This document shows, one piece after another, positions 15,730 to 35,955 of a DNA stretch of 56,672 nt. The notes under the pieces were generated by a model. The model saw only the letters and a program-made list of their open reading frames with translations. It made no database searches and had not been told where the DNA came from. The translations under genes were made by a program, and so were the position numbers. The stretch's first letter is position 1. Each line of letters begins with the position of its first letter. Source of the stretch: Patescibacteria group bacterium. GTDB taxonomy: Bacteria > Patescibacteriota > Minisyncoccia > Minisyncoccales > CG1-02-41-26. The stretch spans positions 1-56,672 of the forward strand of contig JAMCXQ010000005.1 of NCBI GenBank assembly GCA_023474835.1, given 5' to 3'.

Positions 15730-15849
15730 TTTACCTATGTTTTAATAGCCCATTATATTCTTGCCTGTTTGTTTGTCAATTTTGGCTTGGGTATAAGCTG
15801 TTGATTGCCTTTTTCGTTGTTTTATAGTAAGATTTTTTAATCAAGGTAT

Positions 15850-16563
15850 ATGTCAAACAAAGAAAAACAATTGGATTTTTTTGATGATCATGTTTGGGAG
15901 TTGTCGGAAAGTATTAGAAAACAGATAGAAAAAAGAAAGAAGGTGTCAAAGAGGGGAGTAATTGCACAAGAAGAGAGGGCGACAGAACTTTTTACTGAAC
16001 AAAGCGTAAAACGCACCTCTCCATTTCAAAAAATGTTTGAGGATACAACAGAATGCATCGGGTCTCCGGTTCGCATATCTACCTCGTTGTTTAATGCGGT
16101 TTTCGAGAAGATGGAAAAAGAAAAAAGTCTAAAGAATGCTATTTTGAAAATTGACAGAACGGATTTATTAAAAGAGGCAAAGAAGTTTGGGCTGAAGGTT
16201 TATAAAGCTTACGAACGGCAGAAGAATGGACAATTATTGAAGTATCAATTCTTGCCTTTTCGACTTGAACCGTACAATGGTATGGTGGAGGTGAAAATTG
16301 GCTTGCCGTTTGAAGGCAAGGGGGGGGATATGGCTGCGTTGTTAAGAACACTCAAAAAAAGATTTGCACTTCCTGGGATAGTGGATAATGATGGGATACG
16401 GATAACCATTTTTTTGGAAGGTGAAAATATGCCGTTTTTAAAGCCACTTGATTATCGCGTAGGCAACAAAGAGTATATCACAAGAAAAGAGGCAAAAAGT
16501 TTGGGGTTCATTAAGAAAGATGGTGTGGAACCGGATATGCCCGACAACGGTGATAATGAGTAG
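15850..16563 (+). CDS. hypothetical protein
   Basis: Long ORF with a plausible promoter (TTGATT, 16-nt spacer, TATAGT) upstream. No family recognised. Confidence 0.5.
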   Translation: MSNKEKQLDFFDDHVWELSESIRKQIEKRKKVSKRGVIAQEERATELFTEQSVKRTSPFQKMFEDTTECIGSPVRISTSLFNAVFEKMEKEKSLKNAILKIDRTDLLKEAKKFGLKVYKAYERQKNGQLLKYQFLPFRLEPYNGMVEVKIGLPFEGKGGDMAALLRTLKKRFALPGIVDNDGIRITIFLEGENMPFLKPLDYRVGNKEYITRKEAKSLGFIKKDGVEPDMPDNGDNE

Positions 16564-16589
16564 TAGCAATTCTTAAAAGATATTGGGGC

Positions 16590-17030
16590 TTATTTCTTGC
16601 CCTCTTTTTCTATATGGGGGAATGGTAAATATGGTTGTCCTTCTTTCTCATCTTTTTTAATTTTTATCTGTTCTAGAAGAATCGCCTCTATTTTTTCTGG
16701 GTTTTTAATTTCTAATGACTCGAGCACCCTAAGTGCGTTTTCCAATTCTTCAAGCGTGGGCTCGTCATTATGTTTGTCGGATTTTCCTCCAAATTTATAA
16801 ACAATGGCGCTGTCGATAAAATCCCGCAAATTATCTCCTGTTAATTTGTGATCTTGACCAACGAGAAGGGCCGCCTGATTTTTTGAGTATGCCCTTTTTA
16901 TACCATCAAAACCAGCAAATCCATCAGGGGAGCCGTGCACCTCAAAAAGTATTTTTTCTCTTTTTTCGCCCTTTGTCTCTTCAGGCTTATCTTGATCAGT
17001 TTTTTCTTTGTGCAAACCAGGTGAGTTCAT
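16590..17030 (-). CDS. hypothetical protein (charged, Lys/Glu-rich ends)
   Basis: The ORF is the only evidence; no motif recognised. Confidence 0.4.
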   Translation of the reverse strand: MNSPGLHKEKTDQDKPEETKGEKREKILFEVHGSPDGFAGFDGIKRAYSKNQAALLVGQDHKLTGDNLRDFIDSAIVYKFGGKSDKHNDEPTLEELENALRVLESLEIKNPEKIEAILLEQIKIKKDEKEGQPYLPFPHIEKEGKK

Positions 17031-17101
17031 AATTTTATTTGAATTAGTTTTTTATTATTGGACCTTTTTTGAAATCTTCAACTATCCAGCCAAAGACAGT
17101 A

Positions 17102-18406
17102 TTAAACGGTTTGGCAATAATCGCCAAAGCCGTATTTTTCTTTGAGCAGGTTTATTTTTTCCACAGTTAAATTATAGTATTTGGCTCGCTGCGACATTTT
17201 ATATTCCATTACCAGGTCATCTATTGTCGGTTTGGCCAGCTCGGGCGTTTCGAGGGAGTTGCTGTTTTTGTTTTGGCGGCCCTGAAAAGTTTGCTCAATA
17301 AAAGCCTCAAGGTCGGGGAAAGACGCGGTTTCTCGGTTGTACTTTTTGCCGTATTTGGCAATTATTTTGGCGATTTCTTTTTCGTTAAATCCCAGTGCTC
17401 TTAACTGGTCAAATAAGTGCAGGGCTATTGACAGCTTGTCTTGGTTTAGGTTGTAAAAGTTTTCCCTCCCGAGCATAGGCTGATTTAAGTCGCATAAAAT
17501 TTCATAATAAGCCCCCATTGTTTGAGGGTCAGACCCTCTCTCGGCGGCGCTTTTCTCTAAAAAAAGCCATTTGTCATTTTGCATTTCTTTTTCTACCTCT
17601 TCTTTTATTTCGCTTTTATTTTTTATTGGCTGCAGATTTTTTACTTTTTTATACAAAGAAGGGCTTTCTCCTTTGGGAAATTGGCTGATGTTCGCCTGGC
17701 CTTCCAAAAGCTCGTTTTCTTGAAAATATAAAAGCATTTTTTTTAGGTAACCGTATCTTTCTTTTATCTTTGTTTTTTTGGCTGGGTTATTAGGGTTTGT
17801 TGCCATTAAAGCTTTTAATTGTTCTCGGTGGATATTTTCATGAAGTATAACAGCAGGCAGGGCTCCGAAGTGATTAAATTTCAAAAAATGTTTAAGCCGT
17901 GATTTCAAGTCAGCGGGGGTCTCTTTGAAAAAAAGATGCTGTTTCTCTTTGGGTGTTGAAGGGTTGCCGTAAAATATTTTAATTTTATCGTCTAGGGGAT
18001 TAAATGTCCCGAAACAAAGACCTTCTTCCCAAAATTCTTTTTGGTTTTTGAAGTTAAACGGGATAAACTCGGTTTCTGCGGAATAAAGTTGGGCAGATAA
18101 ATCAGGAGTTAACGGGTTTATGCCAAATTCAGCCATAGGCCGGAAAAAATCCCTCCACTGCACCAGCTCAAAAATATCTTTACACAGGGCGGATAATTTT
18201 TTCTGGCTTAAAGAATCAACAAACCGGTCAACGGCTTGCGCGTATTCTTTGAAACCGCCCAATTTTTCCAATAAGCCGCCAGCCTTCTCTTTGGCTGTTT
18301 TCAACTCTTCCCAAGACTTGTTTAATTCGTCTGTTTCCTCGCCGTTTTCTTTTTCGGAGCCTGCCGTTGGCCCTTTTTCAAAATTAAGTTTTTTGCCATT
18401 GGCCAT
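17102..18406 (-). CDS. hypothetical protein with HExxH motif
   Basis: The start was moved to MANGKKLNF (18406), which removes the 62-nt overlap with cysS. VILHENIHRE is a possible zinc-metalloprotease-type HExxH. No family recognised. Confidence 0.55.
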   Translation of the reverse strand: MANGKKLNFEKGPTAGSEKENGEETDELNKSWEELKTAKEKAGGLLEKLGGFKEYAQAVDRFVDSLSQKKLSALCKDIFELVQWRDFFRPMAEFGINPLTPDLSAQLYSAETEFIPFNFKNQKEFWEEGLCFGTFNPLDDKIKIFYGNPSTPKEKQHLFFKETPADLKSRLKHFLKFNHFGALPAVILHENIHREQLKALMATNPNNPAKKTKIKERYGYLKKMLLYFQENELLEGQANISQFPKGESPSLYKKVKNLQPIKNKSEIKEEVEKEMQNDKWLFLEKSAAERGSDPQTMGAYYEILCDLNQPMLGRENFYNLNQDKLSIALHLFDQLRALGFNEKEIAKIIAKYGKKYNRETASFPDLEAFIEQTFQGRQNKNSNSLETPELAKPTIDDLVMEYKMSQRAKYYNLTVEKINLLKEKYGFGDYCQTV

Positions 18407-21042: not shown

Positions 21043-21163
21043 TTGCCGGGTCGTCTAATGGGTCAAAGCCAACTACTTGGCTTTGACGGGCGATTTAGGA
21101 AATCGCCCCCGATTTCCATTAAAAATCGCCCAGGTCTTCCTTAAAAAGTTAGGCAAATTTATT
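21043..21163 (+). repeat. tRNA-linked structured repeat: 19-nt copy of the tRNA-Gln 5' end followed by a hairpin pair
   Basis: 21043-21061 is identical to 21163-21181. HP1 GTCAAAGCCAA-CTAC-TTGGCTTTGAC is at 21062-21087 and HP2 at 21088-21131, followed by AGGTCTTCCTTAA. Same family as 10464-10684. Confidence 0.75.
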
Positions 21164-21235
21164 TGCCGGGTCGTCTAATGGTAGGACGTCTCCCTTTGGA
21201 GGAGAATATTCTAGGTTCGAATCCTAGCCCGGCAG
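21164..21235 (+). tRNA. tRNA-Gln (anticodon TTG)
   Basis: Acceptor TGCCGGG/CCCGGCA (U1-A72, as in bacterial tRNA-Gln), anticodon arm TCTCC-CTTTGGA-GGAGA, T arm CTAGG-TTCGAAT-CCTAG. Confidence 0.85.
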
Positions 21236-21280
21236 CTGATAGAAAATCTTGTTGCGAAGCAACTTAGATTTTCATCATCC

Positions 21281-21406
21281 CGAACTGAAATTGTTTTAAA
21301 ATATTCAGAACAATTCGAAACCTTAAAACAAGCCAGACACCGTGAGGCTGAAATCAAAAGCTGGCGCCGCGAAAAGAAATTAGCGTTAATGAGTCATGGC
21401 AAATAG
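21281..21406 (+). pseudogene. C-terminal remnant of a GIY-YIG (UPF0213-like) nuclease gene
   Basis: Translates as RTEIVLKYSEQFETLKQARHREAEIKSWRREKKLALMSHGK*, which resembles only the last ~40 aa of small GIY-YIG proteins. There is no start codon or N-terminal GIY-YIG part. Its stop overlaps the MTase start. Confidence 0.45.
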
Positions 21407-22502
21407 TAATCTTACTAACGCGAAACAGGCAAAGAATGATGAGTTTTACACGCAATATGGCGATATTCAAAAAGAGATTGAGGCGTATTTGGAATTTAAC
21501 CCAAATGTATTTCGGGGCAGGGTTGTGTATTGCAACTGCGACGATCCGTTTGAAAGCAATTTTTTTCGCTATTTTACGCTTAATTTCAACAAGCTTGGCT
21601 TAAAACAGCTTATTACCACAAGCTACAAGCCCTCGCCCGTAGCCAACACGCAACTGAAATTGTTTGGCGATGATAAAACCCTTACAAAATCAAAGGGCCG
21701 CCCCAAGATAACCGCCAATAAATTTATTATCAATGAAGTAGCTGATATGGACAGCGATGGCGATTTTGATTTAAAGGACATTGCCAAGCAGTTAAAGGCG
21801 AATAAGCACAATGAATGGACGCCGCTTGAGAAAGACGGCGATTTTAGAAGTTCCGAATGCGTAAAATTATTGAAGCAATCAGACATCGTGGTAACAAATC
21901 CGCCGTTTAGTTTGTTTCGTGAATACGTGAAACAACTTATTGAGTATAATAAAAAGTTTGTGATTATCGGCAACAAAAATTGCGTGACATACAAGGAAAT
22001 TTTCCCATTGATTAAAGACAACAAAATGTGGTCTGGCAAAACAGAATGGTCTGGCGGGTTATGGTTCGTAACCATGGATGATGGCGATGTAGATAAAGTA
22101 GTCAATGGCGTTAATATGAAGAATGTGTCTTCTGTTTGGTTTACCAACATAGACCACGGCAGGCGGCATCAGCCATTGCCGCTTATGACAATGGAAGAAA
22201 ATTTGAAATACAGCAAACACAAAGAAATTCAAGGCAAATCGTCGTATGACAAATATGACAACTACGACGCCATAGAAGTGCCCTTTACTGACGCTATCCC
22301 AAGCGATTATAGCGGCGTAATGGGTGTGCCCATCAGTTTTTTGGATAAATATAGCCCCGAACAATTTGAGATTGTTGGGATGGCAGAGGATAATGGCAAA
22401 GGTTTCTCTGGCGGAATTTGGGACGGCAAAAATCCTCACTGTGTCATAAACGGAGAAAATAAGTTCAAGCGAATTTTTATTAAGCATAAGAAAGTTAAGT
22501 AA
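21396..22502 (+). CDS. N6-adenine DNA methyltransferase, EcoRI-methylase-like family
   Basis: N-terminal KNDEFYTQY, catalytic IVVTNPPFSLF (NPPF), and no adjacent restriction endonuclease recognised. Confidence 0.75.
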   Translation: MANSNLTNAKQAKNDEFYTQYGDIQKEIEAYLEFNPNVFRGRVVYCNCDDPFESNFFRYFTLNFNKLGLKQLITTSYKPSPVANTQLKLFGDDKTLTKSKGRPKITANKFIINEVADMDSDGDFDLKDIAKQLKANKHNEWTPLEKDGDFRSSECVKLLKQSDIVVTNPPFSLFREYVKQLIEYNKKFVIIGNKNCVTYKEIFPLIKDNKMWSGKTEWSGGLWFVTMDDGDVDKVVNGVNMKNVSSVWFTNIDHGRRHQPLPLMTMEENLKYSKHKEIQGKSSYDKYDNYDAIEVPFTDAIPSDYSGVMGVPISFLDKYSPEQFEIVGMAEDNGKGFSGGIWDGKNPHCVINGENKFKRIFIKHKKVK

Positions 22503-22508
22503 AAAAAT

Positions 22509-23018
22509 ATGGCAACAAAAAGACAAGTTTTTTACAGTTTTCATTACAAACCAGATTGTTGGCGAGCTTCCCAAGTTCGAAATATTGGAGCCATTGAAGG
22601 GAATAAACCAGCACCTGATAATGATTGGGAAACTATTATAAGAAGTGGCGATGACGCTATTAAAAAATGGATTAAAGATCAAATGAAATACCGATCATGC
22701 ACGGTTGTGCTTGTCGGCGAAAATACTGCTAATCGCAAATGGATAAATCATGAAATAGTTGAATCATGGAATGCAGGAATGGGAGTTGTTGGAATTTGTA
22801 TTCATGGTTTAAAAAATCAAGATGGATATATTGCAAATCAAGGACATGATCCATTCAATTACATTACATATGGCGATAGCGGTAAAAAATTATCATCAAT
22901 AGTAAAATGTTATAATCCGTCAGGAAGTAATAGTAAAGAAAGATATGATTGGATTTATCAATATATTTCTGATGCTGTTGAAGAAGCTATAAGAATTAGA
23001 AATAATTATTCAAAATAA
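22509..23018 (+). CDS. TIR-like protein (DUF1863/ThsB-type)
   Basis: RQVFYSFHYKPDCWRASQVRN, TVVLVGENTANRKWINHEIVESW and GVVGICIHGLKN, a pattern I associate with ThsB-type TIR-like domains. Confidence 0.7.
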   Translation: MATKRQVFYSFHYKPDCWRASQVRNIGAIEGNKPAPDNDWETIIRSGDDAIKKWIKDQMKYRSCTVVLVGENTANRKWINHEIVESWNAGMGVVGICIHGLKNQDGYIANQGHDPFNYITYGDSGKKLSSIVKCYNPSGSNSKERYDWIYQYISDAVEEAIRIRNNYSK

Positions 23019-23021
23019 AAT

Positions 23022-23459
23022 ATGGAAAATCCAACTGAATACAAACATTGTCCAAATAAAATTGCACACTTGCAGATGATTCAAGGTGTTATTGATCGTA
23101 TGGCCGGAAATTTATTTTATCTAAGGGGGTGGGCGATTACGCTACTTGCTGGGCTTTTTGCCATTTCTACTTCGGAAGCGTTAAGCCTCGCAAAGTGGGT
23201 TCCGTTATTATTTTTTGTTTTATTGATTTTATTTTGGATTTATGACGGATATTTTCTTTCTTTGGAGCGTAAATTTAGAGGTTTATATGATAAGATTAGG
23301 AAATTTCCGGAAGAGGAAATTGATTTTTCAATGAATATTGGAGAATTTAAAACTCATGCTGACAAAACGATGTTTGCTACAATATTATCTCCGACGCTAT
23401 TAGGATTTTACGGCATTCTAAGTTTGGCTATGCTGGTAATTATTAAATTTATTTTATAA
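23022..23459 (+). CDS. small membrane protein (3 predicted helices), candidate effector
   Basis: Hydrophobic helices lie at about aa 36-56, 59-78 and 119-143, with a charged linker SLERKFRGLYDKIRKFPEEEIDF. It is embedded between the two TIR-like genes with 3-nt and 1-nt gaps. Confidence 0.65.
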   Translation: MENPTEYKHCPNKIAHLQMIQGVIDRMAGNLFYLRGWAITLLAGLFAISTSEALSLAKWVPLLFFVLLILFWIYDGYFLSLERKFRGLYDKIRKFPEEEIDFSMNIGEFKTHADKTMFATILSPTLLGFYGILSLAMLVIIKFIL

Positions 23460-23460
23460 A

Positions 23461-24135
23461 ATGGCAAGAAAAATTTTCATTAGCTATAAATACGGAGATA
23501 CCGGCGTTCAACATATACCGCGCTATGGCGAATATGATGCAACGACAGCACGACATTATGTTGATGTTTTGCAAACAAAATTGGATGTGGCAGATCATAT
23601 CAATAAAGGGGAAAACGACGGCGAGGATATGAGTAAGTTTAAGGACGAAACGATAGAATCAAATTTGAGAAATAAAATTTTTGACAGTTCAATTACGATT
23701 GTCCTGATATCTAAAAATATGAAAGACCCCTATCTTGCCGAGGATGACCAGTGGATTCCTTGGGAAATTGCATACTCAATGAAAGAAATTACGCGCAACG
23801 GAAGAACAAGCGGAACAAATGCGATGCTAGCCGTCGTCCTCCCTGATGAGAATGGAAATTATTCGTATGTTGTAAATCACTATCAATGCGTAACTGTTTG
23901 GAATGTCGCATCTTTGTTTAAAATTATAGAAAGCAATATGTTTAATCGAAATCAGAAAAATTTAATTCGCTGCGTAACCTGCGGCGGTATTCATCATACA
24001 GGACAAGACCATTCATATATTCATCCAGTCAAATGGTGCGACTTCATTATTAACATTGATGGATATCTTAATCATGTTATTGGGCATCAAAGTAATCTTG
24101 ATAGTTTTGATATTGTAAAAGAAATAACGCATTAA
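23461..24135 (+). CDS. second TIR-like protein with Cys/His-rich C-terminal part
   Basis: ARKIFISYKYGD, ITIVLISKNMKD, QWIPWEIAYSM and a C-terminal CVTCGGIHHTGQDHSYIHPVKWCDF. Confidence 0.6.
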   Translation: MARKIFISYKYGDTGVQHIPRYGEYDATTARHYVDVLQTKLDVADHINKGENDGEDMSKFKDETIESNLRNKIFDSSITIVLISKNMKDPYLAEDDQWIPWEIAYSMKEITRNGRTSGTNAMLAVVLPDENGNYSYVVNHYQCVTVWNVASLFKIIESNMFNRNQKNLIRCVTCGGIHHTGQDHSYIHPVKWCDFIINIDGYLNHVIGHQSNLDSFDIVKEITH

Positions 24136-24145
24136 TTAAAAAAAT

Positions 24146-24199
24146 ATGAAAGCAATTTTAAAAAGCGACACTACTGTTAAAGATATTTGCGAGGGGTGA
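24146..24199 (+). pseudogene. 17-codon remnant of a DUF262-type gene start
   Basis: MKAILKSDTTVKDICEG* compared with [18 protein letters not shown] at 24930; 42 of 52 nt are identical by hand alignment. It starts 10 nt after the TIR gene stop. Confidence 0.6.
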
Positions 24200-24297
24200 A
24201 AATTATAGGCAATGGCGGGATTAAGTTGGAAAATTGAACTACCGAGGAATCCTCGGTAGTTCAAAAAACTTCGAATAAATTAGTTGAATAATAAGTT

Positions 24298-24699
24298 ATG
24301 GAGAAAGAAAATTATAAAAAAGAGTTTGATAAATGGAATATCCAAAAAAAGATTACTCACAATAGTGAAAATAAAAAAACTTTTCACGAACAAGAAATTT
24401 GGTTTATTAAAATTGGCGAGAATATTGGTTTTGAACAAGACGGAAAGGGCGAGGATTTTTTAAGGCCAGTTATTGTTTACAAAAAATTTTCAAAAAATGT
24501 TTTTTTGGGCATACCTTTAACAAAAGCAATAAAAGAAAATAAGTTTTATAAGGTATTTGATTTTCATGGAGAAAAAAGCAATGCAATTCTGTCGCAAATA
24601 AGACTTTTTGATTCAAAGAGATTAAAATATAAAATTGGAAAAATGAGTTCTGTTGATTTTGCTTCTGTAAAAGAAAAACTCATCCAGTTGATTAGATGA
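24298..24699 (+). CDS. MazF/PemK-like toxin, no adjacent antitoxin gene seen
   Basis: EIWFIKIGENIGFEQDGKGEDFLRPVIVYKKF..FLGIPLTKAIKE..AILSQIRLFDSKRL fits the PemK/MazF family pattern. Confidence 0.65.
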   Translation: MEKENYKKEFDKWNIQKKITHNSENKKTFHEQEIWFIKIGENIGFEQDGKGEDFLRPVIVYKKFSKNVFLGIPLTKAIKENKFYKVFDFHGEKSNAILSQIRLFDSKRLKYKIGKMSSVDFASVKEKLIQLIR

Positions 24700-24786
24700 G
24701 TTTTCCCTGTTTTTACTCCCCATAAGGGGAGAGAGTCCTAATGGACATTTATATTGTAATATTACCATATTTTAAAGTTAAAAGTC

Positions 24787-24907
24787 AATAGTAGGACTTA
24801 CGCGTTTGGGCATTTTTTCTCAAAAATCGCGTGAAATATGGCCTTATTTCGTGGCCTCATTGCACAAAAAATGGCTAAAACTGGCCAAACGCGTAAGTCC
24901 TAAATAG
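24787..24907. mobile_element. MITE-like element: 18-bp perfect terminal inverted repeats with 5-bp AATAG flanking duplication
   Basis: TAGGACTTACGCGTTTGG (24792-24809) and CCAAACGCGTAAGTCCTA (24885-24902) enclose a 75-nt non-coding core. AATAG occurs at 24787-24791 and again at 24903-24907. Confidence 0.55.
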
Positions 24908-24929
24908 TTTAAAAAAGTGAAAAAACAAT

Positions 24930-26099
24930 ATGAAAACGATTTTAAAAACCAATATTACCGTTAGAGAAATTTGCGACGGGTTTGTTTATAACGAGCTTGA
25001 GGGCAAAGGCTTGTTTGGCTTGTCTGGCAAATTGACTATTCAGCCGGAATATCAACGCAACTATATCTATGCTTCCGATGGGGGCAAAAAAGAAATTGCT
25101 GTTATTGGCTCAATTCTTAAGGGCTATCCAATTGGCTTAATTTATTTTAATAAGGTTTCTGAAAATAACCTGGAAGTTTTAGACGGGCAACAACGGATTA
25201 CCAGCTTAGGGCGGTTTATAACCGATAAATTTGCCATTAAAGATGCAAACAATATGGAGCAATATTTTAATGGTATGGCGAAAGACAAACAAGCCAAAAT
25301 TTTGGAAACCAAACTTTTGATTTACGAATGCGAAGGCACGGAAAGCGAGATAAAAGAATGGTTTAAAACGATTAATATTGCCGGCGTGCCGCTTAATAAT
25401 CAGGAATTGCTTAATGCTGTTTATTCTGGGCCGTTTGTAACGCTCGGCAAAGAAGAGTTTAGCAACAGCCAAAACGCCAATATCCAGAAATGGAGCGCCT
25501 ATATATCGGGCAGCGCTAACCGGCAGGACTTTTTGGAACGCGCTTTGGATTGGGTAAGCAAAGGAAATATCGGGGACTATATGAGCCACCATCGTTTTGA
25601 TAAAAATATCACTGAGCTCAAAAAATATTTCAACAGCGTGATTGATTGGGTTTCTGCTATATTTATTGATGTGGAAAGCGAGATGCGCGGGCTGGAATGG
25701 GGCAGATTATACGAACAGTATCATAAGAAAGCGTATGACCCCGTCAAAGTCTCAGCCGAAGTGCAAAAGCTTTACGCTGATCCGTATGTAAAAAATCGCA
25801 GGGGGATTTTTGAGTATATTCTCGGCGGTTCCGTTGACACGAAATTGCTTGATGTTAGAGTTTTTGACGAAGCAACCAAGAAAGCTGTTTATACAACGCA
25901 AACTGCTGCGGCCGGAAAGAAAGAAAAGTCAAACTGCCCGCATTGCGCCATTGGGCACGACGCCAACAAGAGCAAAATTTGGAGTTTTGGTGAAATGGAC
26001 GCCGATCACGTAGCGGCCTGGAGCAAGGGAGGCGCAACTACAGCTAAGAATTGTCAGATGCTTTGCAAGACACATAATCGAGCGAAAGGTAATCGATAA
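24930..26099 (+). CDS. DUF262 (ParB/GmrSD-N-like) plus HNH nuclease fusion protein
   Basis: [16 protein letters not shown] (the DGQQR motif of DUF262). C-terminal [31 protein letters not shown] is an HNH motif. Confidence 0.75.
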
Positions 26100-26250
26100 T
26101 TTTATCTATGCAGGGTTACCTAATATGCCCGGATCGATTATTGAGCCCGAGCTTCCAAAAAAGACGAAAAAAGATTAGAATCGATATAATCTCGAGTTAA
26201 TTGTTAGGGGTTCGGGGTATAAATATACCCGCATTGTTGCTGAAGTATAT

Positions 26251-26277
26251 TTCTAGCATTTACCAACTCTCGCAGCA
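26251..26277 (+). repeat. 27-nt direct repeat, left copy (TTCTAGCATTTACCAACTCTCGCAGCA)
   Basis: Matches 27488-27514 at 24 of 27 positions. Each copy is followed by a short hairpin using CAACTC/GAGTTG. Confidence 0.6.
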
Positions 26278-26379
26278 GAGTTTGCAAGAGTTGACAGAGA
26301 ATAGAAGGGAAAACTGACAAAAGTTTACAAGTTATCTTTGTGGGTCAACTAATAATTAATTTTAATAAATTTAATCAAT

Positions 26380-26742
26380 ATGGTATCTCCTCAACTTTGG
26401 TTAGAAATATTATCTCTTACAAAAGCTCTTTTTGATGCTATTAAGTCGGGCGCAGATCTTCTTGCGAGCTATCAGAAGCATAAACAAGAAAAAGAAACAG
26501 TTCAGGAGTCTCAGAGGGTAAGCGAAGTATTTTCTACCTACTCAGAAAATGAAGTAAAAAAGATTCTTTTACGATTAGAACAATGTCGGGATCGATTTAT
26601 TAAACAAGGTGGTGGTACGGATAGAGCGTCCTGTTTATGTAGTATATTGAATGAGGTTAAGATTGGTAATGGAGGTCAGCTTCCTATTATAGATGATTGG
26701 GCTAATATTTATCGTCAACTAGGGTGTGGTACTCATCAGTAA
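26380..26742 (+). CDS. hypothetical protein (120 aa)
   Basis: AT-rich ORF in the island; no motif recognised. Confidence 0.45.
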   Translation: MVSPQLWLEILSLTKALFDAIKSGADLLASYQKHKQEKETVQESQRVSEVFSTYSENEVKKILLRLEQCRDRFIKQGGGTDRASCLCSILNEVKIGNGGQLPIIDDWANIYRQLGCGTHQ

Positions 26743-26810
26743 TATTGATTCTAATCGAGACTAATGTTGCTAGAGGAGTTAAAAATAAACATAAATTTTT
26801 TTATAGAAAC

Positions 26811-27458
26811 ATGCAAAGTTTATTAGATACAAATCTAGAAAGAATTAAATCAGAAATACAACAAAATTCTTGGAATAATAAAGATATAGTTTCTTTAATG
26901 AATTTTTTTAGGCATATTTTAGAGTCAAGCAAATCTCAAGGAAAATATAAATATATTAATCTCTATTCTAATTGGGTATTTCACACGGAGATAACTAAAA
27001 ATTCAGTAGCAATGGATATTCTGGATATTTTGACTGATTCAATGATCAAACATAACGTTAATCCTAAAGATGGAAAGTGGGTTAACGATGCGATTATTGA
27101 AGGACTTTCACTTCATCTATTAAGAGAAGAAATTTTGTCATTCTCAAAAGAATTTAATCTTGGTACAGATGTTAACATTTACGAATTTAATAATTGGAAA
27201 AATTTTGCAGTGTCCTTAATAAAGGAATTATTAAATAAACCCTTGAAAGTCATTCAAAATAAGACGATATATAATAACCTTATCGATAAAGCAAATAAAT
27301 CAGGGTATATCGGCAATGCAGTATTAGCAATATATTTTTGGGTAGATAATAATGGGATTGTCCATTGGAAAATCGATACACCAGAAAGTTTAAGAAAGGG
27401 CGTTTCAGTAATTGGCCCGATGAGTATAATTTCTCAGCAGATGATCGATGGTTGTTAA
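26811..27458 (+). CDS. hypothetical protein (about 216 aa)
   Basis: ATG at 26811. The track's GTG at 26724 would overlap the upstream gene. No motif recognised. Confidence 0.45.
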   Translation: MQSLLDTNLERIKSEIQQNSWNNKDIVSLMNFFRHILESSKSQGKYKYINLYSNWVFHTEITKNSVAMDILDILTDSMIKHNVNPKDGKWVNDAIIEGLSLHLLREEILSFSKEFNLGTDVNIYEFNNWKNFAVSLIKELLNKPLKVIQNKTIYNNLIDKANKSGYIGNAVLAIYFWVDNNGIVHWKIDTPESLRKGVSVIGPMSIISQQMIDGC

Positions 27459-27487
27459 GCGGAAATTGAAGAGTTTGCCATTAAAAT

Positions 27488-27514
27488 TCTTCTAACATTT
27501 ACCAACTCTCGTAA
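27488..27514 (+). repeat. 27-nt direct repeat, right copy (TTCTAACATTTACCAACTCTCGTAACA)
   Basis: See 26251-26277. Confidence 0.6.
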
Positions 27515-27557
27515 CAATCGTGGACTTTTTGAGTTCGGGAATGCAAATATAGCTATA

Positions 27558-29240
27558 ATGAAAATAAATAATACTTTTAAGCTTGTTATCGCTGTCGTCG
27601 TTTCCGAACTTGCCGGCATTATCGGCTCGGTGTTTACGGCGCCATCTATTACCGGCTGGTATACAGAATTGGTTAAACCGGCCCTGAATCCTCCGGCGTG
27701 GGTGTTTGGTCCAGTCTGGACGACGCTGTTTGCTCTGATGGGCATTGCGGCGTTTCTGGTATGGAAGAAAGGGCTAAATCGTAAAGATATTAAAATCGCC
27801 CTTGGCATATTTATCGGTCAGTTGGTTTTGAATACTCTTTGGTCAATTATATTTTTCGGCTTGCACAATCCTGGCTTGGCATTTGTTGAGATTATTTTCC
27901 TTTGGTTTGCCATTCTTGCCACTGTTATCGCTTTCGCCAGAATTTCCCAATGGGCCGTATGGCTTTTGGCGCCCTATATTCTCTGGGTAAGTTTTGCCGG
28001 CTATCTCAATTATTCCATTTGGCAGGTTAATGCCGGCCCTTTGGCAAATACTGAACAAGTTGCGGTCAAAACTGTTGTTGAAAGTTTCGGCCATTCGCTA
28101 AAGAACGTTTCTTTGCTTTCTCCTACGGCCAGTCAGGACATTGAAATAAATTATAAGGACTTTCTCGACCCTGCTTTGCTGGCTCAATGGAAGGCCGACC
28201 CTTCAAAAGCATTGGGCAGACTGACTTCCAGCCCCTGGCCAGAGAGCATTGAGGTTGAAAGCATCAATAAATTCGGTTCTGGCGCTTATGATGTGAGCGG
28301 AAAAATCATAGATATGACCAGCACTGGCATAGCGGGATCGCAGGCAGTCCAAATAGGCGTTGTTAAATTCGGCGGCCGCTGGCTCATAACCGGAGTTTCG
28401 GTAATTTCTCCGGAAGGAAACGAGCTTTGGAAAGAACATAGCAGCAACGGCGTTTCTTTCCAGTATCCGGAAAAATTAACCGCTAAATATGTTTTTAGCC
28501 AGGGATGGCCGCCGACAGTTAAGGTGGAATCGGGCAGTTTTTCTTGCATAGAAACGCCGCAGGAAAAAAGCAGCATGCTTGAAATAACCAGCCAGAGATT
28601 GGTTGATAACAGAATTTACTGCGTTAACGTTAAAAACGAGGGGGCGGCAGGGAGCGTTTATTCTTCTTACGTTTACACTACTTCCATGAGAGGAAAAATG
28701 GTTTCAGTAAGCTTTGTTTTGCGTTATTCAAATTGCGCCAATTACGACGAGGAGCAGAATCAGGCCTGCACGAGCGAGCGGGAGGCCTTTGACCTTGACG
28801 CAACAGTGGACCGTATGGTTCAGACCGTCAGCTGGGATTCAGCTTTCAGTGAAGACACCTTATCCAATCAAATATCCAAGTGTCTGGTATTGAGCTATTC
28901 GGGAGACAAAGAAAAATGCGATGAACTTTTAAAACAGATTACCGATTTTGATTCCTGCGTTATGGCCGGTTTTTCGATATTAAAATCCAATCCAGCTCAA
29001 TGCCAAACAATTGACGGAAGAACCTTTGTCCAGGAAACAAACAGCACTTGGGAGCAGGCGTTATTGACTGTCAATAACTGCGAGGCTGAAAAAGCTTTCC
29101 AGACTCATAGCAGATTAGTAACCCTTACACTGAAAAACGGCAACAAGCTAATTGCCAAAGAACCGCAGATTGATGATATAATTGATATAATCAGAGCCGC
29201 AGAGTCGAAGTGCGGCAAAATTCCAATAGGAACAGAGTAA
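27558..29240 (+). CDS. TspO/MBR family membrane domain fused to a ~400-aa C-terminal extramembrane domain
   Basis: GWYTELVKPALNPPAWVFGPVWTTLFALMGIAAFLVW and LAPYILWVSFAGYLNYSIW are TspO-like across 5 TM helices. The remainder is soluble, Cys-containing and unassigned. Confidence 0.7.
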   Translation: MKINNTFKLVIAVVVSELAGIIGSVFTAPSITGWYTELVKPALNPPAWVFGPVWTTLFALMGIAAFLVWKKGLNRKDIKIALGIFIGQLVLNTLWSIIFFGLHNPGLAFVEIIFLWFAILATVIAFARISQWAVWLLAPYILWVSFAGYLNYSIWQVNAGPLANTEQVAVKTVVESFGHSLKNVSLLSPTASQDIEINYKDFLDPALLAQWKADPSKALGRLTSSPWPESIEVESINKFGSGAYDVSGKIIDMTSTGIAGSQAVQIGVVKFGGRWLITGVSVISPEGNELWKEHSSNGVSFQYPEKLTAKYVFSQGWPPTVKVESGSFSCIETPQEKSSMLEITSQRLVDNRIYCVNVKNEGAAGSVYSSYVYTTSMRGKMVSVSFVLRYSNCANYDEEQNQACTSEREAFDLDATVDRMVQTVSWDSAFSEDTLSNQISKCLVLSYSGDKEKCDELLKQITDFDSCVMAGFSILKSNPAQCQTIDGRTFVQETNSTWEQALLTVNNCEAEKAFQTHSRLVTLTLKNGNKLIAKEPQIDDIIDIIRAAESKCGKIPIGTE

Positions 29241-29245
29241 TAAAT

Positions 29246-29509
29246 ATGAATTTCAAATGTGATTTACAAAAAATTCCCGGAGTTGGCAAAAGTATTTCCC
29301 AAGACTTACAGAATATAGGCATTCAATCCATTGCGGATTTAAAAGGTAAAAATCCAGAGAAACTATATGAAAAATCCAATCAATTTGAAGGGATTACGCA
29401 GGACAGATGTTTGCTGTATATATTTCGTTGCGCGGTTTATTTCGCTGGACACAAAAATCCAAATCCAGAAAAATTGAAGTGGTGGAATTGGAAAGATAGG
29501 CGGAAATGA
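29246..29509 (+). CDS. helix-hairpin-helix protein (Cdd1 'pathogenicity locus' family-like)
   Basis: DLQKIPGVGKSISQDLQNIGIQSIADLKGKNPEKLYE..DRCLLYIFRCAVYF. Start set at the ATG at 29246. Confidence 0.6.
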   Translation: MNFKCDLQKIPGVGKSISQDLQNIGIQSIADLKGKNPEKLYEKSNQFEGITQDRCLLYIFRCAVYFAGHKNPNPEKLKWWNWKDRRK

Positions 29510-29516
29510 TTCAGCG

Positions 29517-29622
29517 GGGAATAAACTTCAAGGTTTTGATGGTTGTTGCGGCCGGAGAAGGCGAGGATATCTGGACGATATCGTTCAATGATATCGCCGG
29601 CAGTTTTAGCTTAAAAAAGTAA
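29517..29622 (+). pseudogene. C-terminal fragment paralogous to the 35332-35955 gene
   Basis: GINFKVLMVVAAGEGEDIWTISFNDIAGSFSLKK* compared with GVNFKILMVVIAGQGEDVWVLSFN..YNIAGSFSLKK* at 35332-35955. There is no N-terminal part. Confidence 0.6.
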
Positions 29623-29735
29623 CTTTGCGCAGGATTTTTGCCTTTCTTGCTTTCTATTTTTTCAGTTTTATTTTTACCTATTTTGACAACGAAAATTTAA
29701 AGAGCTAAAATAATGATAATCATAAAAATAAATAT

Positions 29736-32700
29736 ATGGATACAAAAAGAATTATCGCATATTCGTTAGCAGGAATTTGCGCAATAATCGCCGGGGTTAT
29801 TCTATGGAATAATCGGGCGGTGGTGGTCAAACAAATTGCCCAGCTGCCTTCAAAAATATTTGAAGCGTCCATTGTGCCAGCCACAAGCTCTATCGTATTG
29901 GACGCTTCAAAGGACGGTCCCATTTATGGCGATCCGGTTGGCTTGCAAAGGGTTCGTGATTTGGAAACCGAACTTCACAACATGGTTATCAGGCCGGACC
30001 ACCCAAGGTTGTTCATTACCAAAGAGACATTGCCAACTTACCAGGCGAGGGTTAAAATGCCCCAGCTCGCCGCTTACTGGGCGAACATAAAAAAGGCGGC
30101 TACGAGCACAAACACAAACGTTCCTTTTGTTTATGACAATATGGTGAACGCCGCCTTTGCTTATTTGATGCTGAAAGACGACAATCCGGCCGCCGCAGCC
30201 GTTTACTCCAACATAGTAATCAATAGATTAAAAACATTAAATCCGACTCCCTGGCCGTTAGACAATACCAACCTGAAAAGAAACGAGGTTGCCAATATGG
30301 CGCTTGCTTTTGACTGGGTTTATTCCGCTATGACTCCGGCGGACAGGGCGACGATTGCCAATAAAATAGGGGTGGCCGCAAATATTGCCGTCACCGCCCA
30401 GGGCATACGCAATGGCGAAAGGATTCAGGGCGAATCGTTCCATCGCGAAGAATGGATGGATAAATACACGTTGGCGTATCCAACCTTGGCTTTGGCCGGA
30501 GAATTTCCCGATGCCGACTTTTGCTTTAAGGCCTGGTGGGGATATGATTGGATTGTCGGGGACGCGGTGAGAACGTTTGCTTATCTGGGCGATGGCTCTT
30601 TCCCGAACGACGGCTATTATGAAGGGCCCGACGGCGCTGAATGGCTGTTGCTGCTGAAATCCGCAACAGGAATCAATTTGGTTGACGGCCCGAAGTGGTC
30701 CTGGGCGAAAAAAACGGCTGATCAGTTTTTTTATCACACCGATTTTTGGGACAGAAAACGGGAAATTTTTCACCATGGCGTTTTGGGCGAATGCGCGGTC
30801 GGTTTAATGACTTTGTTTAATTACAGCTCATCTTTTGATCCTTCGAAATTGCAGAAAGAACAAGGCAGAGGAATGGCTTTGAATATGAACAGCAACCCTT
30901 ATTATCGCTGGCACCTCGGCAATCTTTTGGAAAACAAATTTGATTTCGGCGTGGGCTTAAACGCCAATATCAGCCAGATTATGTTTAACGATCCAGCAGT
31001 GTCGCCAAAAGATCCCCAAGGCGCCACTTATGCCGAATTGCCGATGAGTTTGTATATGCCTGACGGCAACGAGGTGTATATGCACAGCGCCTGGCTGCCC
31101 AAGAGCGTGATTGCCGGCTTCAGGGCAAGCCCGGCTTTTACCAAATCAAGCCATGGCGACTACGATACCAATAGTTTTATGATTTATCGGGACGGCAACC
31201 TTTCCGCTGACACGGGATTTTACGATGCATATCTGGGCGGGCAGGCAAACACCAAACATTATCAAAAAATAACATTGTCCCATAACGATATTTTGGTAAT
31301 AGACCCCACAAGACCCCAGGATTTCAGCCAGTGGGCAGGCATGGAAGACCGTGGCGGGGTTGAGCACGTGAGCACGAAGAATTTCAGCGCCAGTCCGGCT
31401 ACCGACGGGTTGCGCACGGTTTTCGCCCTGCAGCCCCAGGCGAATTACAGCGACATTGTCAAATATGAAAGCACTCCCGAATACGATTACGCGGTAGGCG
31501 AAGCAGCGGCAGCTTATGGTTTGGGGTCAAAAGCGCGGTTAAACGAATATTACCGCAACGTTGCCTTTTTAAGAAAGGGCACCAAGGCCTATATGATTGT
31601 TTTTGACAGGATAGAGTCGGTTAACAAAGACGCTGAAAAAAAATGGCTGATGCACTTTGTAAGCGAACCAACCGTGAGCGGAAATAAAATATCCGAACAG
31701 GTTTCAGGCCAGGTTGACGCATATGACGGAGATTACACGGTGGCCCGCAATGTTTATAATACCTCGGCGGTTTATGTAAAGACTCTCTTGCCCGTCCAGC
31801 ATAAAATCCGAAGAGTCGGCGGCACGGGTTTTGAATTTGCCGTGGAAAACGCTAACGGCACTTTTACAAACTGGCCTGTTCCTCAAACCCAGTTAGCGAA
31901 ATATGAAGCCCGCCAAGGCGGCCCCTGGCAGGAAGGCGGCACCTGGCGAATAGAACTGTCTCCGACTACCAGACAAAACCGCGATTATTTTTTGAATGTA
32001 ATGTATGTCGGCGACGCCGGAGAAACTATGGTGCCAGTGCAATACATTGAAGAAAACGGTATGGCTGGCGTGATTATTAATGATCCGGCCTTGCCCAAGA
32101 ACAAAATTTTGTTCACTAAAACCGGCGATCCGAATGCGGTTTTCACCAACTCTTCCGTTTCCGCTGATACGATTCTTCCTGCGCCGATCAGCCAGTTATC
32201 TTATAGCGGCTTGACCTACAATTCGGTTAACCTTTCCTGGACGGCGGTCGGCGATGACGGCAATACGGGAACAGCAACAAGATATGATTTGCGTTATTCG
32301 AAAAGCGCGATTACGTCAAGTAATTTTGATTCGGCCCTAAACGTTAATTCCGCTCCTACCCCAAAGCCGGCCGGCCAGACAGAGATAATGCTTTTAACCG
32401 GTTTGGAGCCGCTGACTACTTATTATGTGGCCGTAAGGGCGATTGATGATTACAACAATAAAGGAGGGATATCCAACGTGGTTTCTTTTGCCACTCCTGC
32501 CGTTCCCAGCGACACGCAACCTCCCGCCAAGCCCCTGGGATTAAAGGCCACCGCTCAATTAAGCACAGCTATTTTGCTTTCCTGGGCTGCTTCAACCGAC
32601 AATACGTCGGTGGCTGGTTATAATGTTTACCGTGACAACGTTAAAATAGCCAGCGTTGGCAACCCTTACTTTACCGACAGCGGGCTTGCCGCTTCAACGG

Positions 32701-34289: not shown

Positions 34290-34373
34290 ATTATCGGGAA
34301 TGTGATTTTTGAAATCCGTAAAAAAGCGGAACATTATAAGCAAAGGTCGGAGAATAATAACAGCAAAAGCAAT

Positions 34374-34835
34374 ATGGCAAAAAAAGCAATTGTTTGGCTG
34401 GCAGTGTTTGCGGGTTTGGCTGTTGCGTCAATTGCGCTTGTCCAGACTTCAACCAGCCAGGCGGCGACATCTTCCGTTTCCGCGGCAGCTTCAAGCACTG
34501 CGGCAAAAATTGCCTGCGTGGGAGCGGCGGTTAACGCTCGCGAGCAAGCAATAGGCGCGGCAATGACAACTTATACGGTTGCTGTCAACGCGTCTTACAG
34601 CACCCGCGCAGCAGCTCTCCAGCAGGCATACGCGCAGACAACTTCGAAAGGCGTGAAAGCGGCCGTGAAAACGGCCTGGTCCGCTTTCAAAATATCAATG
34701 CAAAGCGCCCGCAAGGCCTGGCAAACAAGCCGCAACGCAAGCTGGGCAAGTTTCAGAAAAGCCGCGGCTGCCTGCAAGGCGCCTGTGGGGGTCAGCGACA
34801 GCGGAAATTCCGGCTTAGAGGCATCCGGCCAGTAA
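34374..34835 (+). CDS. secreted Ala-rich helical protein
   Basis: Start set at MAKKAIVWLAVFAGLAVASIALVQ (signal peptide). A terminator lies downstream. Confidence 0.55.
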   Translation: MAKKAIVWLAVFAGLAVASIALVQTSTSQAATSSVSAAASSTAAKIACVGAAVNAREQAIGAAMTTYTVAVNASYSTRAAALQQAYAQTTSKGVKAAVKTAWSAFKISMQSARKAWQTSRNASWASFRKAAAACKAPVGVSDSGNSGLEASGQ

Positions 34836-34854
34836 AAGCCCAAAACATAATCAA

Positions 34855-34885
34855 AAAAGAGGGGATTCATCCTCTTTTTTGTTTT
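34855..34885 (+). terminator. rho-independent terminator AAGAGGGGATTCATCCTCTT plus T-run
   Basis: Hairpin followed by TTTTTTGTTTT, directly after the stop at 34835. Confidence 0.65.
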
Positions 34886-34952
34886 GGCAATTTTTGGTAT
34901 AGTGTATTAAGCTGTTTGAGACAAATGAATTGAATTTACACAATTTCAAAAT

Positions 34953-35316
34953 GTGGCTCTAAAAATCAATAAAAATAAATTTGAGATTTTTTTGGAGGTT
35001 GTGGAAGAATTGAACAGCCGTTTTAATATTGTTCCTGTTCTTTACGGTTCGCTGGGGCTTTATCGGCGAATAGGGGAATTTGGGAAATCAAACGATGTTG
35101 ATATTTTGGTTCCCAGTAGTTTGATTAACGAAAAGTGGAAAGAGCTTGTTAAACTTAAAAGTAAAATTCAGGCAGCTTTTGCCCGAGCAGTATCTTTTAG
35201 TTTATAAATTTATGCTTCGGGACAACTATCGGCAGGAAAAGCGGGGAAGCGCCGATAAGGAGAAAATTGTATTAATTGAAAAGTTTCTCTATGGCAAGGT
35301 CTGTGCAAAAAATTAA
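34953..35316 (+). pseudogene. nucleotidyltransferase-fold gene with internal deletion
   Basis: The N-terminal 84 aa carry YGSLGL..NDVDILV (the GS..DxD NTase hallmark). A stop follows, then a separate 34-codon tail frame (MLRDNYRQEKRGSADKEKIVLIEKFLYGKVCAKN*). The middle of the gene is missing. Confidence 0.45.
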
Positions 35317-35331
35317 ACAATCGTAAAAGAT

Positions 35332-35955
35332 ATGAAAAACAAAACAATAACAATTATCGTTTTAATCATTTTGGTTGTTGTTTTGGCAGTGTCAATTAGC
35401 GTTTATTTTATCAAGCGAACGCCGGCGGTAAATCAAAAAGGAACAAAAAGCGGCGCGGAAGCGGGCAACCAAGCAAATGCCGGACAGCCGCAAAATAAGC
35501 TGATAACCGATGATTTTTCAGTTAATCTTCCCGCGGGCTGGAAACAGACAGCTCCTGCTATCGGGGCTTCGGCAATGGCCGTTTACGCGGATGAGAATAT
35601 CGCTGACCCGCAAGTTCAAAAAATAAATTTCAAAAGCTATTTCGCGGTGAGCTACGACACCCTTCAGGGGAAAAGTATGAACGATTATCTGCAAATCGTT
35701 AAAAACGGGCTTTTGCAAACCATTCCAAACGTTATTTTCACCAAAGAGCAGGATATAATGATAGGCGGCAGACCCGCCCGAGCGATGGAGGCGGAATTAA
35801 CCCAGCAGGGGGTAAATTTCAAGATTTTGATGGTGGTAATTGCCGGGCAAGGAGAAGATGTTTGGGTTCTGTCTTTTAACACAACCAAGGGCAGTTGGGA
35901 CGGATATAAAGAAATGTTTTATAATATAGCCGGCAGCTTTAGTTTGAAAAAGTAG
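35332..35955 (+). CDS. membrane-anchored extracytoplasmic protein, unknown function
   Basis: N-terminal TM helix and a soluble alpha/beta-like domain. A paralogous fragment lies at 29517-29622. Confidence 0.6.
   Translation: MKNKTITIIVLIILVVVLAVSISVYFIKRTPAVNQKGTKSGAEAGNQANAGQPQNKLITDDFSVNLPAGWKQTAPAIGASAMAVYADENIADPQVQKINFKSYFAVSYDTLQGKSMNDYLQIVKNGLLQTIPNVIFTKEQDIMIGGRPARAMEAELTQQGVNFKILMVVIAGQGEDVWVLSFNTTKGSWDGYKEMFYNIAGSFSLKK

Follow-up and report, generated by a model that had tools for sequence, protein, structure and literature searches.

A putative travelling Type II restriction-modification unit with nested defence-type genes near tRNA-Gln in a Patescibacteria genome

The DNA stretch analysed here (the window) comprises 56,672 nucleotides of contig JAMCXQ010000005.1, which is contig C7 of a 647-kb metagenome-assembled genome (MAG) of a Patescibacteria bacterium, in 35 contigs and 94% complete. 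To our knowledge, the Patescibacteria, or candidate phyla radiation (CPR), combine tiny genomes with few known defences beyond restriction-modification (R-M); the genomes of the relatives considered below span 0.3–1.0 Mb. Under study was a block of defence-type genes downstream of tRNA-Gln, which a first-pass annotation, made from the letters alone, had bounded at 21236–27514 and described as an AT-rich defence island assembled by successive insertions and replacements at a tRNA-proximal hotspot. Its genes are designated M (EcoRI-family methyltransferase), R (DUF262-HNH nuclease), T1 and T2 (TIR-like genes), 3TM (three-helix membrane protein), and c1 and c2 (open reading frames, ORFs, after R). 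Gene families were assigned by profile searches with Pfam, PADLOC and NCBIfam and by sequence searches of the PDB. All features lie on the + strand except a spacer, a palindrome and an element resembling a miniature inverted-repeat transposable element (MITE), to which no strand was assigned. The genes and the MITE-like element of the first-pass annotation were all recovered by Pfam, PADLOC or a repeat finder; NCBIfam yielded no match for any island protein.

M (21396–22502), at the left end of the block, encodes an N6-adenine DNA methyltransferase of the EcoRI family with an NPPF motif (Pfam EcoRI_methylase, 1.1e-119), and R (24930–26099), at its right end, is an intact gene combining a DUF262 (GmrSD_N/ParB-like) domain with an HNH nuclease (PADLOC REase_II, 3.5e-82). 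PDB sequence searches with M, R and the MazF-like protein described below gave no match. Further M–R loci were examined (L149–L267, about 120), with 55 metagenome loci being informative for gene order. M directly preceded R in 45 of these 55, across gaps of mostly −4 to +4 nt and typically with a 4-nt overlap or 1 nt between them. Such conserved adjacency of an NPPF-bearing methylase and a nuclease is the arrangement of a Type II R-M pairing, and by sequence M and R form a widely disseminated two-gene system of this type, with predicted methylation and cleavage of a DNA site. Homologues of R number in the hundreds at 80–89% identity in metagenomes and were found at 60–86% identity on IMG/VR contigs; the same M–R pair was present on 39 IMG/VR contigs. 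Homologues of island genes carry names such as Pacebacteria, Uhrbacteria, Woesebacteria, Saccharibacteria and similar. Core genes of relatives were about 60–72% identical, which is below the 80–89% of the block genes, whose counterparts lie on many unrelated contigs. Homology to about 90 M–R loci begins at 21396, the ATG of M, and ends at 26099, the stop codon of R. We regard it as probable that the foreign core of the island is a single 4.7-kb unit, 21396–26099, whose parts travel together.

In the window, the pair is separated by cargo in two slots, with T1, 3TM and T2 in slot 1 and a MazF-like gene and the MITE-like element in slot 2. T1 (22509–23018; PF08937) and T2 (23461–24135) are TIR-like genes of the ThsB type, with E-values of 2.4e-27 and 5.4e-07 against Pfam ThsB_TIR and of 3e-66 and 6.7e-76 against PADLOC ThsB. 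T1 matched PDB 8wcf and the ThsB structures 6lhy and 9b7d, and the whole length of T2 matched 9vyl, a "putative cyclic ADP-D-ribose synthase TIR1" (7.6e-65). WxxxE, a motif that ThsB of the DUF1863 type cannot do without (bioRxiv 10.64898/2026.01.22.701046), is retained in both proteins. Between them, 3TM (23022–23459) encodes a presumed membrane effector of 145 residues with three membrane helices, placed at residues 10–50, 60–94 and 124–144 in an AlphaFold2 model (pLDDT 76). The protein had no Pfam or NCBIfam domain, its sole PADLOC match even at E ≤ 10 was PDC-M50A (1.5e-40), and a fold search against the PDB returned no match at E < 1. T1, which lies 3 nt away, matched PDC-M50B (2e-63), and the two genes together constitute a PDC-M50 system as PADLOC defines it. 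No ThsA-type domain (SIR2-SLOG, Macro-TM, SLOG or caspase) was detected in 3TM or in any other island gene, and the cassette therefore falls outside the formal definition of Thoeris. By analogy, a Thoeris-like mechanism would be the most economical one, its biochemical activities being presumed.

The context of 3TM was surveyed at 80 genome loci, mostly from Patescibacteria, at nearly all of which a TIR gene of T1 or T2 type came next; at several of them, the hsdM and hsdS genes of a Type I system enclose T1–3TM–T2. The immediate upstream gene, classed at 55 loci, was a DNA methylase in about 21–23 (N6_N4, 10; HsdM-type, 6; C5, 4; D12, 2; EcoRI, 1), and a methyltransferase motif occurred in 19 of 40 immediate upstream genes versus 7 of 209 genes at least five positions away (p = 3e-12). 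The name PDC-M50 already carries this link to methylases: what qualified genes as a PDC system was their embedding in BREX, DISARM or Type I R-M (the "guilt-by-embedding" of Payne et al. 2024, bioRxiv 10.1101/2024.01.29.577857). A literature search for the name found no paper using it. The DNA of T1 was 85–87% identical to that of TIR genes following another 3TM lineage, the protein of which is ~50% identical to 3TM of the window, and on this comparison T1 appears to have a history separate from that of 3TM.

The gaps along M–T1–3TM–T2 measure 6, 3 and 1 nt, so the three cargo genes are predicted to form one operon with M. The ATG (24146) of a 5' remnant of R follows 10 nt after the T2 stop codon; the remnant (24138–24197), a mark of the former T2–R junction, comprises the ribosome-binding region and 17 codons, and was aligned by the repeat finder to 24922–24981 at 82% over 60 nt, which confirms the 17-codon DUF262 remnant noticed earlier. 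Downstream lie a perfect 15-bp palindrome (24234–24264), the MazF-like gene (24298–24699) and the 111-bp MITE-like element (24792–24902). The MazF-like gene is a solo member of the PemK/MazF family, which scored 32.1 bits against PF02452 and thus exceeded the cut-off of 23.1 by a modest margin. It has the toxin fold of a MazEF pair and no adjacent antitoxin, given that 24136–24297 contains no + strand ORF of at least 40 aa besides the R remnant and that the MITE-like element follows downstream. A 35-nt blastn match within this gene to eight viral loci was discarded as an A-rich chance match. As expected of a MITE, the element has 26-nt terminal inverted repeats (24792–24817 and 24877–24902, 92% complementary), no ORF, and more than a single copy in the genome, namely two; the second copy, on contig C33, is about 82% identical, and the CAATA/AAATA that might be taken for a target-site duplication flank this copy as well.

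Cargo between M and R is not peculiar to the window. One to five genes occupy this position in 10 of the 55 informative loci (about 18%), and named products elsewhere include Fic, RhuM, HEPN_AbiU2, an OLD-type ATPase-TOPRIM and a trypsin-like protease, next to several unknowns. Examples of cargo-bearing loci are L168, L173, L188, L194, L218 and L249–L256. Judged from these gene orders, the M|R junction appears to be a recurrent docking slot for cargo of the abortive-infection type. At locus L055, located after rplL, the order is M–AIPR–3TM–T2–R 5' remnant (9146–9181)–Fic–R, with a 3TM that is the closest homologue of ours (85%), and at L057 it is M–3TM–T2–R with gaps of 2–12 nt. The window and L055 are alike in that an R remnant sits 10 nt behind the T2 stop codon and ahead of a toxin-type gene, which argues that the T2–R junction is ancestral; either a second slot just inside R was hit independently or one slot was re-used.

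On the left, the block is preceded by tRNA-Gln (UUG, 21164–21236), the conserved left anchor, which was called by ARAGORN and Rfam, and by an imperfect hairpin directly 3' of it (21241–21273), read from the sequence as the likely tRNA terminator. A start-less, C-terminal GIY-YIG remnant (21270–21395) comes next. Its Pfam match was weak (E 0.12, profile positions 37–76 of 78), and the earlier call of a GIY-YIG-like fragment gained support from 21351–21390, which shares 82.5% DNA identity with the 3' portion of a GIY-YIG gene that is intact and equally placed in the metagenome locus L145. Where the last ~10 codons of the remnant would be expected, the R-M unit begins, and the frame of the remnant continues 8 nt beyond the ATG of M. 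By this alignment the target of insertion would have been not the tRNA but a GIY-YIG gene, hit at its 3' end some 155 nt past the tRNA. The intact gene of L145 (73–545) encodes 88 aa and stands between tRNA-Gln(CUG) and a 14-nt repeat of the 3' end of that tRNA (CCAGGTCCGGCAGC), with a comparable hairpin after the repeat; this flanking suggests that small GIY-YIG genes insert at tRNA 3' ends. GIY-YIG genes accounted for 2 of 71 scanned genes downstream of tRNA-Gln in relatives and were located upstream of 4 of 55 3TM cassettes.

Synteny was compared with 12 species-level relatives from GTDB. The linkage of dnaX to tRNA-Gln was kept in 12/12, cysS being retained too in most, and after tRNA-Gln the synteny was broken in 12/12, each relative having different downstream genes, mostly housekeeping ones with a few Mrr, methyltransferase, AbiE and GIY-YIG genes. 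Both c2 and the M…R block were absent from all 12 relatives, and TspO, the far neighbour of the island in the first-pass annotation, was located elsewhere or missing. Of the adjacencies to be compared in relatives, that of dnaX and tRNA-Gln was thus general and that of TspO was not. Likewise, the proposed tRNA-proximal hotspot is supported as a point of broken synteny, and is weakly supported as a hotspot for defence, given the few defence genes in relatives.

The best comparators, the metagenome loci L142–L145, were found via a look-up of homologues of c2, of which there were only two clusters among 5.8 billion proteins, and do not belong to the 12 GTDB relatives. In L142–L144 the order is cysS–dnaX–NYN–tRNA-Gln–(24 nt)–c2 homologue–homologue of window 35332–35955, with no M…R block. 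Their dnaX is 72% identical to that of the window, which is closer than any relative in the genome collection, and the empty-site comparison rests on these metagenome contigs of the closest relative seen. In L145 the order is tRNA-Gln(CUG)–GIY-YIG–c2 homologue, again with no M…R block. The protein encoded by c2 (26811–27458, with the start called at ATG 26811; 215 aa) is 80% identical in L142–L144 and 69% in L145, at the same position, and the DNA of window 26805–27511 is 83.5% identical to L142, with homology ending at 27511. From these comparisons the ancestral order appears to be tRNA-Gln–(GIY-YIG)–c2, which makes c2 and the 26-nt motif downstream of it native to the site. Absence of the block from L142–L145 indicates that it is accessory, as had been proposed, and not part of a conserved core order.

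This motif of 22–26 nt, TTCTARCATTTWCYAAYTCTCG(CAGC), occurs directly downstream of c2 genes in three lineages (besides the window, at L142:8680–8701 and L145:1466–1487), and the intergenic DNA around it is not conserved. It is confined to the window and c2 homologues and was found in 0 of about 120 M–R loci; the closest relative that has TspO likewise lacks a copy of the 27-nt motif near that gene. The two 27-nt direct repeats seen earlier do exist, being identical at 24/27 positions according to the repeat finder. DR2 (27490–27516) is the conserved motif 3' of c2 and is orthologous in L142–L145, and DR1 (26251–26277) is a supernumerary copy of the 26-nt motif, which is otherwise seen behind c2 genes. 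Similarity between 26100–26400 and the 3' region of c2 was limited to the 22–26-nt motif. The "two-gene cassette" that these repeats were said to flank is not a demonstrable mobile unit, c2 and DR2 being native, and for the same reason the right border had to be moved from 27514 to the spacer at 26100–26250, in which the foreign part ends and which, by the homology borders, contains the right insertion junction. Between DR1 and c2 lie a promoter-like sequence (26314–26331), CTGACAAAAGTTTACAAG, and c1 (26380–26742), an ORF of 120 aa. The former, read from the sequence, resembles DNA between tRNA-Gln and c2 in L142, so that what stands 3' of the tRNA there recurs in the window upstream of c1. 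Neither c1 nor the MazF-like protein had homologues among about 270 fetched loci.

The composition of the island was not uniform. At 0.357, the GC content of 21237–27514 lies below the mean of the genome, 0.445 (sd 0.024 among windows of 6.3 kb; z about −3.7), and is the lowest of any 6.3-kb window in the 647-kb assembly, with 0.02% of windows equally low. Sliding GC fell to 0.33 at 22.5–24.9 kb and to 0.32 at 26.1–27.5 kb, in agreement with the AT-rich stretches that had been judged by eye at 22.5–24.7 and 26.1–27.5 kb. Codon usage drew a mosaic: GC at third codon positions (GC3), which averaged 0.504 (sd 0.078) over the ORFs of the genome, was ordinary in M (0.47) and R (0.45) and reached 0.17 in T1, 0.29 in 3TM, 0.33 in T2, 0.23 in the MazF-like gene, 0.23 in c1 and 0.25 in c2. 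The values of the cargo genes (0.17–0.33) lie at or below the 3.6th percentile of the genome, and the MazF-like gene has the lowest GC of the island (0.266). The native c2 is as AT-rich as the cargo, and low GC by itself is no proof of foreign origin; it is the composition together with the absence from L142–L144 that bears out an accessory, foreign block. Low GC is not specific to the island within the window, as positions 14000–18000 also have 0.35–0.39, core-like genes included. The insertions and replacements postulated at the outset have thus left traces in the R remnant, the mosaic of cargo and the contrast in GC3 between M/R and the cargo. Mosaic and contrast point to successive insertions or replacements, but within the R-M operon, which need not have stood at this site at the time. 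As L055 shows the same layout at a site other than a tRNA, much of the assembly may have taken place before arrival here.

Searches for mobility functions agreed with the first-pass annotation, which had listed no integrase or transposase and had found the tRNA 3' end not repeated at the far border. Pfam scans of the island ORFs, which also covered serine recombinases and DDE transposases, gave no recombinase hit, and the sole PF00589 match of the genome lies on contig C14. Within or near the island, a 23-mer (up to 3 mismatches) and a 14-mer (up to 2) from the tRNA 3' end matched only the tRNA itself. The search for att-like repeats that had been suggested revealed no stretch of at least 9 nt common to both junction regions. 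Both hallmarks of an integrase-mediated, tRNA-integrated island, a recombinase and a distal repeat of the tRNA 3' end, are accordingly lacking. A unit with neither recombinase nor junction repeats would move without machinery of its own, and recombination after DNA uptake or transduction would be its likely route.

We favour, as the probable explanation of the locus, a travelling Type II R-M pair with nested Thoeris-like and toxin-type cargo that was inserted in a GIY-YIG gene. It builds on the observed anatomy, composition, homology borders, empty site and nesting statistics; what the proteins do, and when and where the locus was put together, we infer. M would methylate host DNA and R would cut unmethylated incoming DNA. 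The two ThsB-like TIR proteins would sense infection and make an NAD-derived nucleotide that would switch on 3TM, whose damage to the membrane would abort infection, and the MazF-like protein, as a putative RNase, would add a further toxin-type layer. Several observations weigh against this explanation. The relative that provides the empty site is only 72% identical in dnaX, the right junction is located only to within the spacer, and c1, be it native or inserted, and the origin of DR1 are not accounted for by it. Moreover, 3TM has no recognisable ligand-binding domain, PDC-M50 is so far a PADLOC candidate, the MazF-like gene has no antitoxin and passed Pfam modestly, and R lies 2.4 kb from M with the palindrome and the MITE-like element between them, the normal coupling of the pair being lost and expression of R being presumed. 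Under the model of the first-pass annotation, which we consider unlikely, the island was built in place by independent insertions at a tRNA-Gln hotspot, for example of decayed integrative elements minus their recombinases. Adjacency to the tRNA and the synteny broken there in 12/12 relatives, a few of which have Mrr, methyltransferase, AbiE or GIY-YIG genes at this position, would fit such a history, as would the GIY-YIG and R remnants, the MITE-like element, the direct repeats, the L145 GIY-YIG gene with its flanking repeat of the tRNA 3' end, and a different small element whose targets here are tRNA genes, in their 5' halves. Independent insertions lined up at the tRNA are nevertheless not borne out: the window has neither the tRNA 3' repeat nor a recombinase, the junction lies in the 3' end of the GIY-YIG gene, M and R are one unit with exact borders in about 90 loci, the nested layout recurs with its R remnant at the non-tRNA site of L055, c2 and DR2 are native, and the genes after tRNA-Gln in relatives are mostly housekeeping. 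That the region is no real island, and instead an odd core region or an assembly chimera, is very improbable. The MAG does consist of 35 contigs, c2 is as AT-rich as the cargo, and 14–18 kb is likewise poor in GC; yet both flanks are syntenic with one relative contig (dnaX–tRNA-Gln on the left, c2 and the homologue of 35332–35955 on the right) from which the block is missing, the block lies 21 kb inside the 56.7-kb contig, and its genes are 80–89% identical to genes on many unrelated contigs.

A further alternative concerns function and is, in our view, quite unlikely, namely that the 3TM/TIR genes are no independent passenger but are coupled to the host R-M system, either by Metis-like sensing or by a PrrC-like guard that fires when a phage inhibits R-M. 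In the Metis-like version, 3TM would sense methylated mononucleotides freed by phage degradation of host DNA, and the TIR-like enzymes would clear the basal signal. Quite doubtful, too, is the related view that the M|R and hsdM|hsdS junctions are a dedicated site at which the cassette is wired to R-M via the methyl mark or R-M integrity; cargo would then be exchanged by recombination in which the 5' end of R is formed anew, and the remnants of the window and L055 would be by-products. Coupling would account for the methyltransferases immediately upstream (19/40 versus 7/209), for the gaps of 2–6 nt to the upstream methylase and for the cassettes between hsdM and hsdS of Type I systems. In addition, the Metis effector resembles 3TM in form, as the domain-less three-helix MisC of Type II Metis binds m6dAMP and requires a DNA methylase (bioRxiv 10.1101/2025.11.05.686725). 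The layouts of 3TM and MisC-like families are collinear, with F[WY]xxD and FYG motifs at equivalent places; the MisC-like family used (A5) was seeded from the gene adjoining a MisB homologue on a Pseudomonas syringae plasmid and not from the published MisC. Against this, hhalign of 3TM (family A1 or an 86-sequence set) with A5 gave a probability of 4–11% and a local match of 13–19 columns, and 3TM proteins near C5 and near N4/N6 methylases are 90–95% identical with no co-variation, so that 3TM does not appear to be tuned to the methyl mark of its neighbour. Neither the Metis-like nor the PrrC-like version was supported, and on these two results coupling is kept as a rival of low probability. 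Host methylases of at least five unrelated families speak against a specific protein guard, about 40% of the loci lack a methylase within three genes, T1 and T2 are closely homologous to Thoeris ThsB and cADPR-synthase TIRs with WxxxE, and embedding in R-M is common to many unrelated defence genes (PMC3710099, PMC11411939).

Compared with known systems, the locus is a defence island, with several systems (R-M, PDC-M50/ThsB TIRs and PemK/MazF) within 4.7 kb and an accessory nature that is apparent from its absence in L142–L145 and its atypical composition. It resembles other defence and tRNA-adjacent islands in these respects and in its tRNA neighbour and break of synteny, and differs from tRNA-adjacent islands in having no integrase, no tRNA 3' repeat, a junction outside the tRNA, mostly one R-M operon as content and a CPR host of 0.65 Mb. 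As in PDC-M50, matches to PDC-M50A and PDC-M50B are adjacent and embedded in R-M; unlike there, two TIR genes flank 3TM, the host is a Type II M–R pair and not Type I R-M, BREX or DISARM, and the family is concentrated in Patescibacteria. Type II Thoeris pairs a TIR ThsB with a Macro/transmembrane ThsA, and several TIR genes per effector are common in Thoeris. The window shares with it ThsB-type TIRs bearing the catalytic WxxxE motif and a small membrane partner, but in this partner of 145 aa Macro, SIR2, SLOG and caspase domains are lacking, as is any PADLOC match to ThsA. In Type II Metis (the HAD phosphatase MisB plus MisC), a small domain-less three-helix effector is likewise combined with a nucleotide-handling enzyme and linked to methylation. 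The window differs in its TIR instead of HAD partner, with no HAD hit in the island that would indicate a MisB-type phosphatase, in the lack of MisC-like homology and in the absence of co-variation between 3TM and methylase. Second-line genes placed between R-M genes in the same orientation have precedents. PrrC sits in the EcoprrI R-M system. TgvAB lies in the Type I R-M of V. cholerae VPI-2 (PMC11411939), and HEPN, Fic and RhuM genes occur in R-M operons (PMC3710099). The present case differs from these in that the host is a two-gene Type II pair with its 4-nt overlap broken, and in that an R remnant marks the cargo in two independent loci; no sign of a physical or regulatory coupling emerged.

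The kind of locus is therefore known, through defence islands, R-M embedding and PDC-M50, and the host lineage, the Type II pair and the recurring remnant of the R start are modest additions. About 1% of a 0.65-Mb genome is given over to one compact, layered defence locus. It offers a natural example of nesting in a two-gene Type II pair, embedding having been catalogued so far mainly for Type I R-M, BREX and DISARM. The PDC-M50 candidate is common and highly conserved across Patescibacteria, where it stands behind methylases of at least five families, and would be a target for studying Thoeris-like signalling with a minimal membrane effector as well as a test case for passengers versus partners.

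Beyond the island, a second segment is extra with respect to L142, at 27512–35331. It has about 7.8 kb and ordinary GC, and contains a TspO fusion, a Cdd1-like HhH protein (29210–29509), a 1517-aa surface-type protein with fn3 and LamG domains, and a 177-aa ORF. In the fusion (27558–29240), TspO (residues 12–155) is followed by ~400 C-terminal residues in which no domain was recognised; one relative (G018) has the fusion at 67% identity, and the others have a plain TspO of ~160 aa or none.

On the other side of the tRNA, a ~85-nt repeat element with two hairpins lies between dnaX and tRNA-Gln (21043–21162), flanked by an exact 19-nt duplication of the tRNA 5' end; this upstream repeat (21043–21061) belongs to that small element and not to the island. 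The gap between dnaX and tRNA-Gln is 163 nt here and about 16–30 nt in 9 of the 11 relatives with a tRNA after dnaX (with 89, 483 and 770 nt also encountered). Two units of this element stand before tRNA-Glu, together with a duplication of 22 nt (10464–10684), and further copies were found in the same genome (G000) at C20:27157–27312, C17:~7023–7109 and C11:5613–5653. Copies also follow the ...TGG of tRNA D-loops, with duplications of 13–22 nt; the targets of the element in this genome are tRNA 5' halves. In two relatives, dnaX itself matched in two pieces (residues 1–130 and 129–367) within one frame of ~790–805 aa (G001:C7:156117–158447 and G013:C29:546–2873), which hints at an intein or a large insert within this clamp-loader ATPase.

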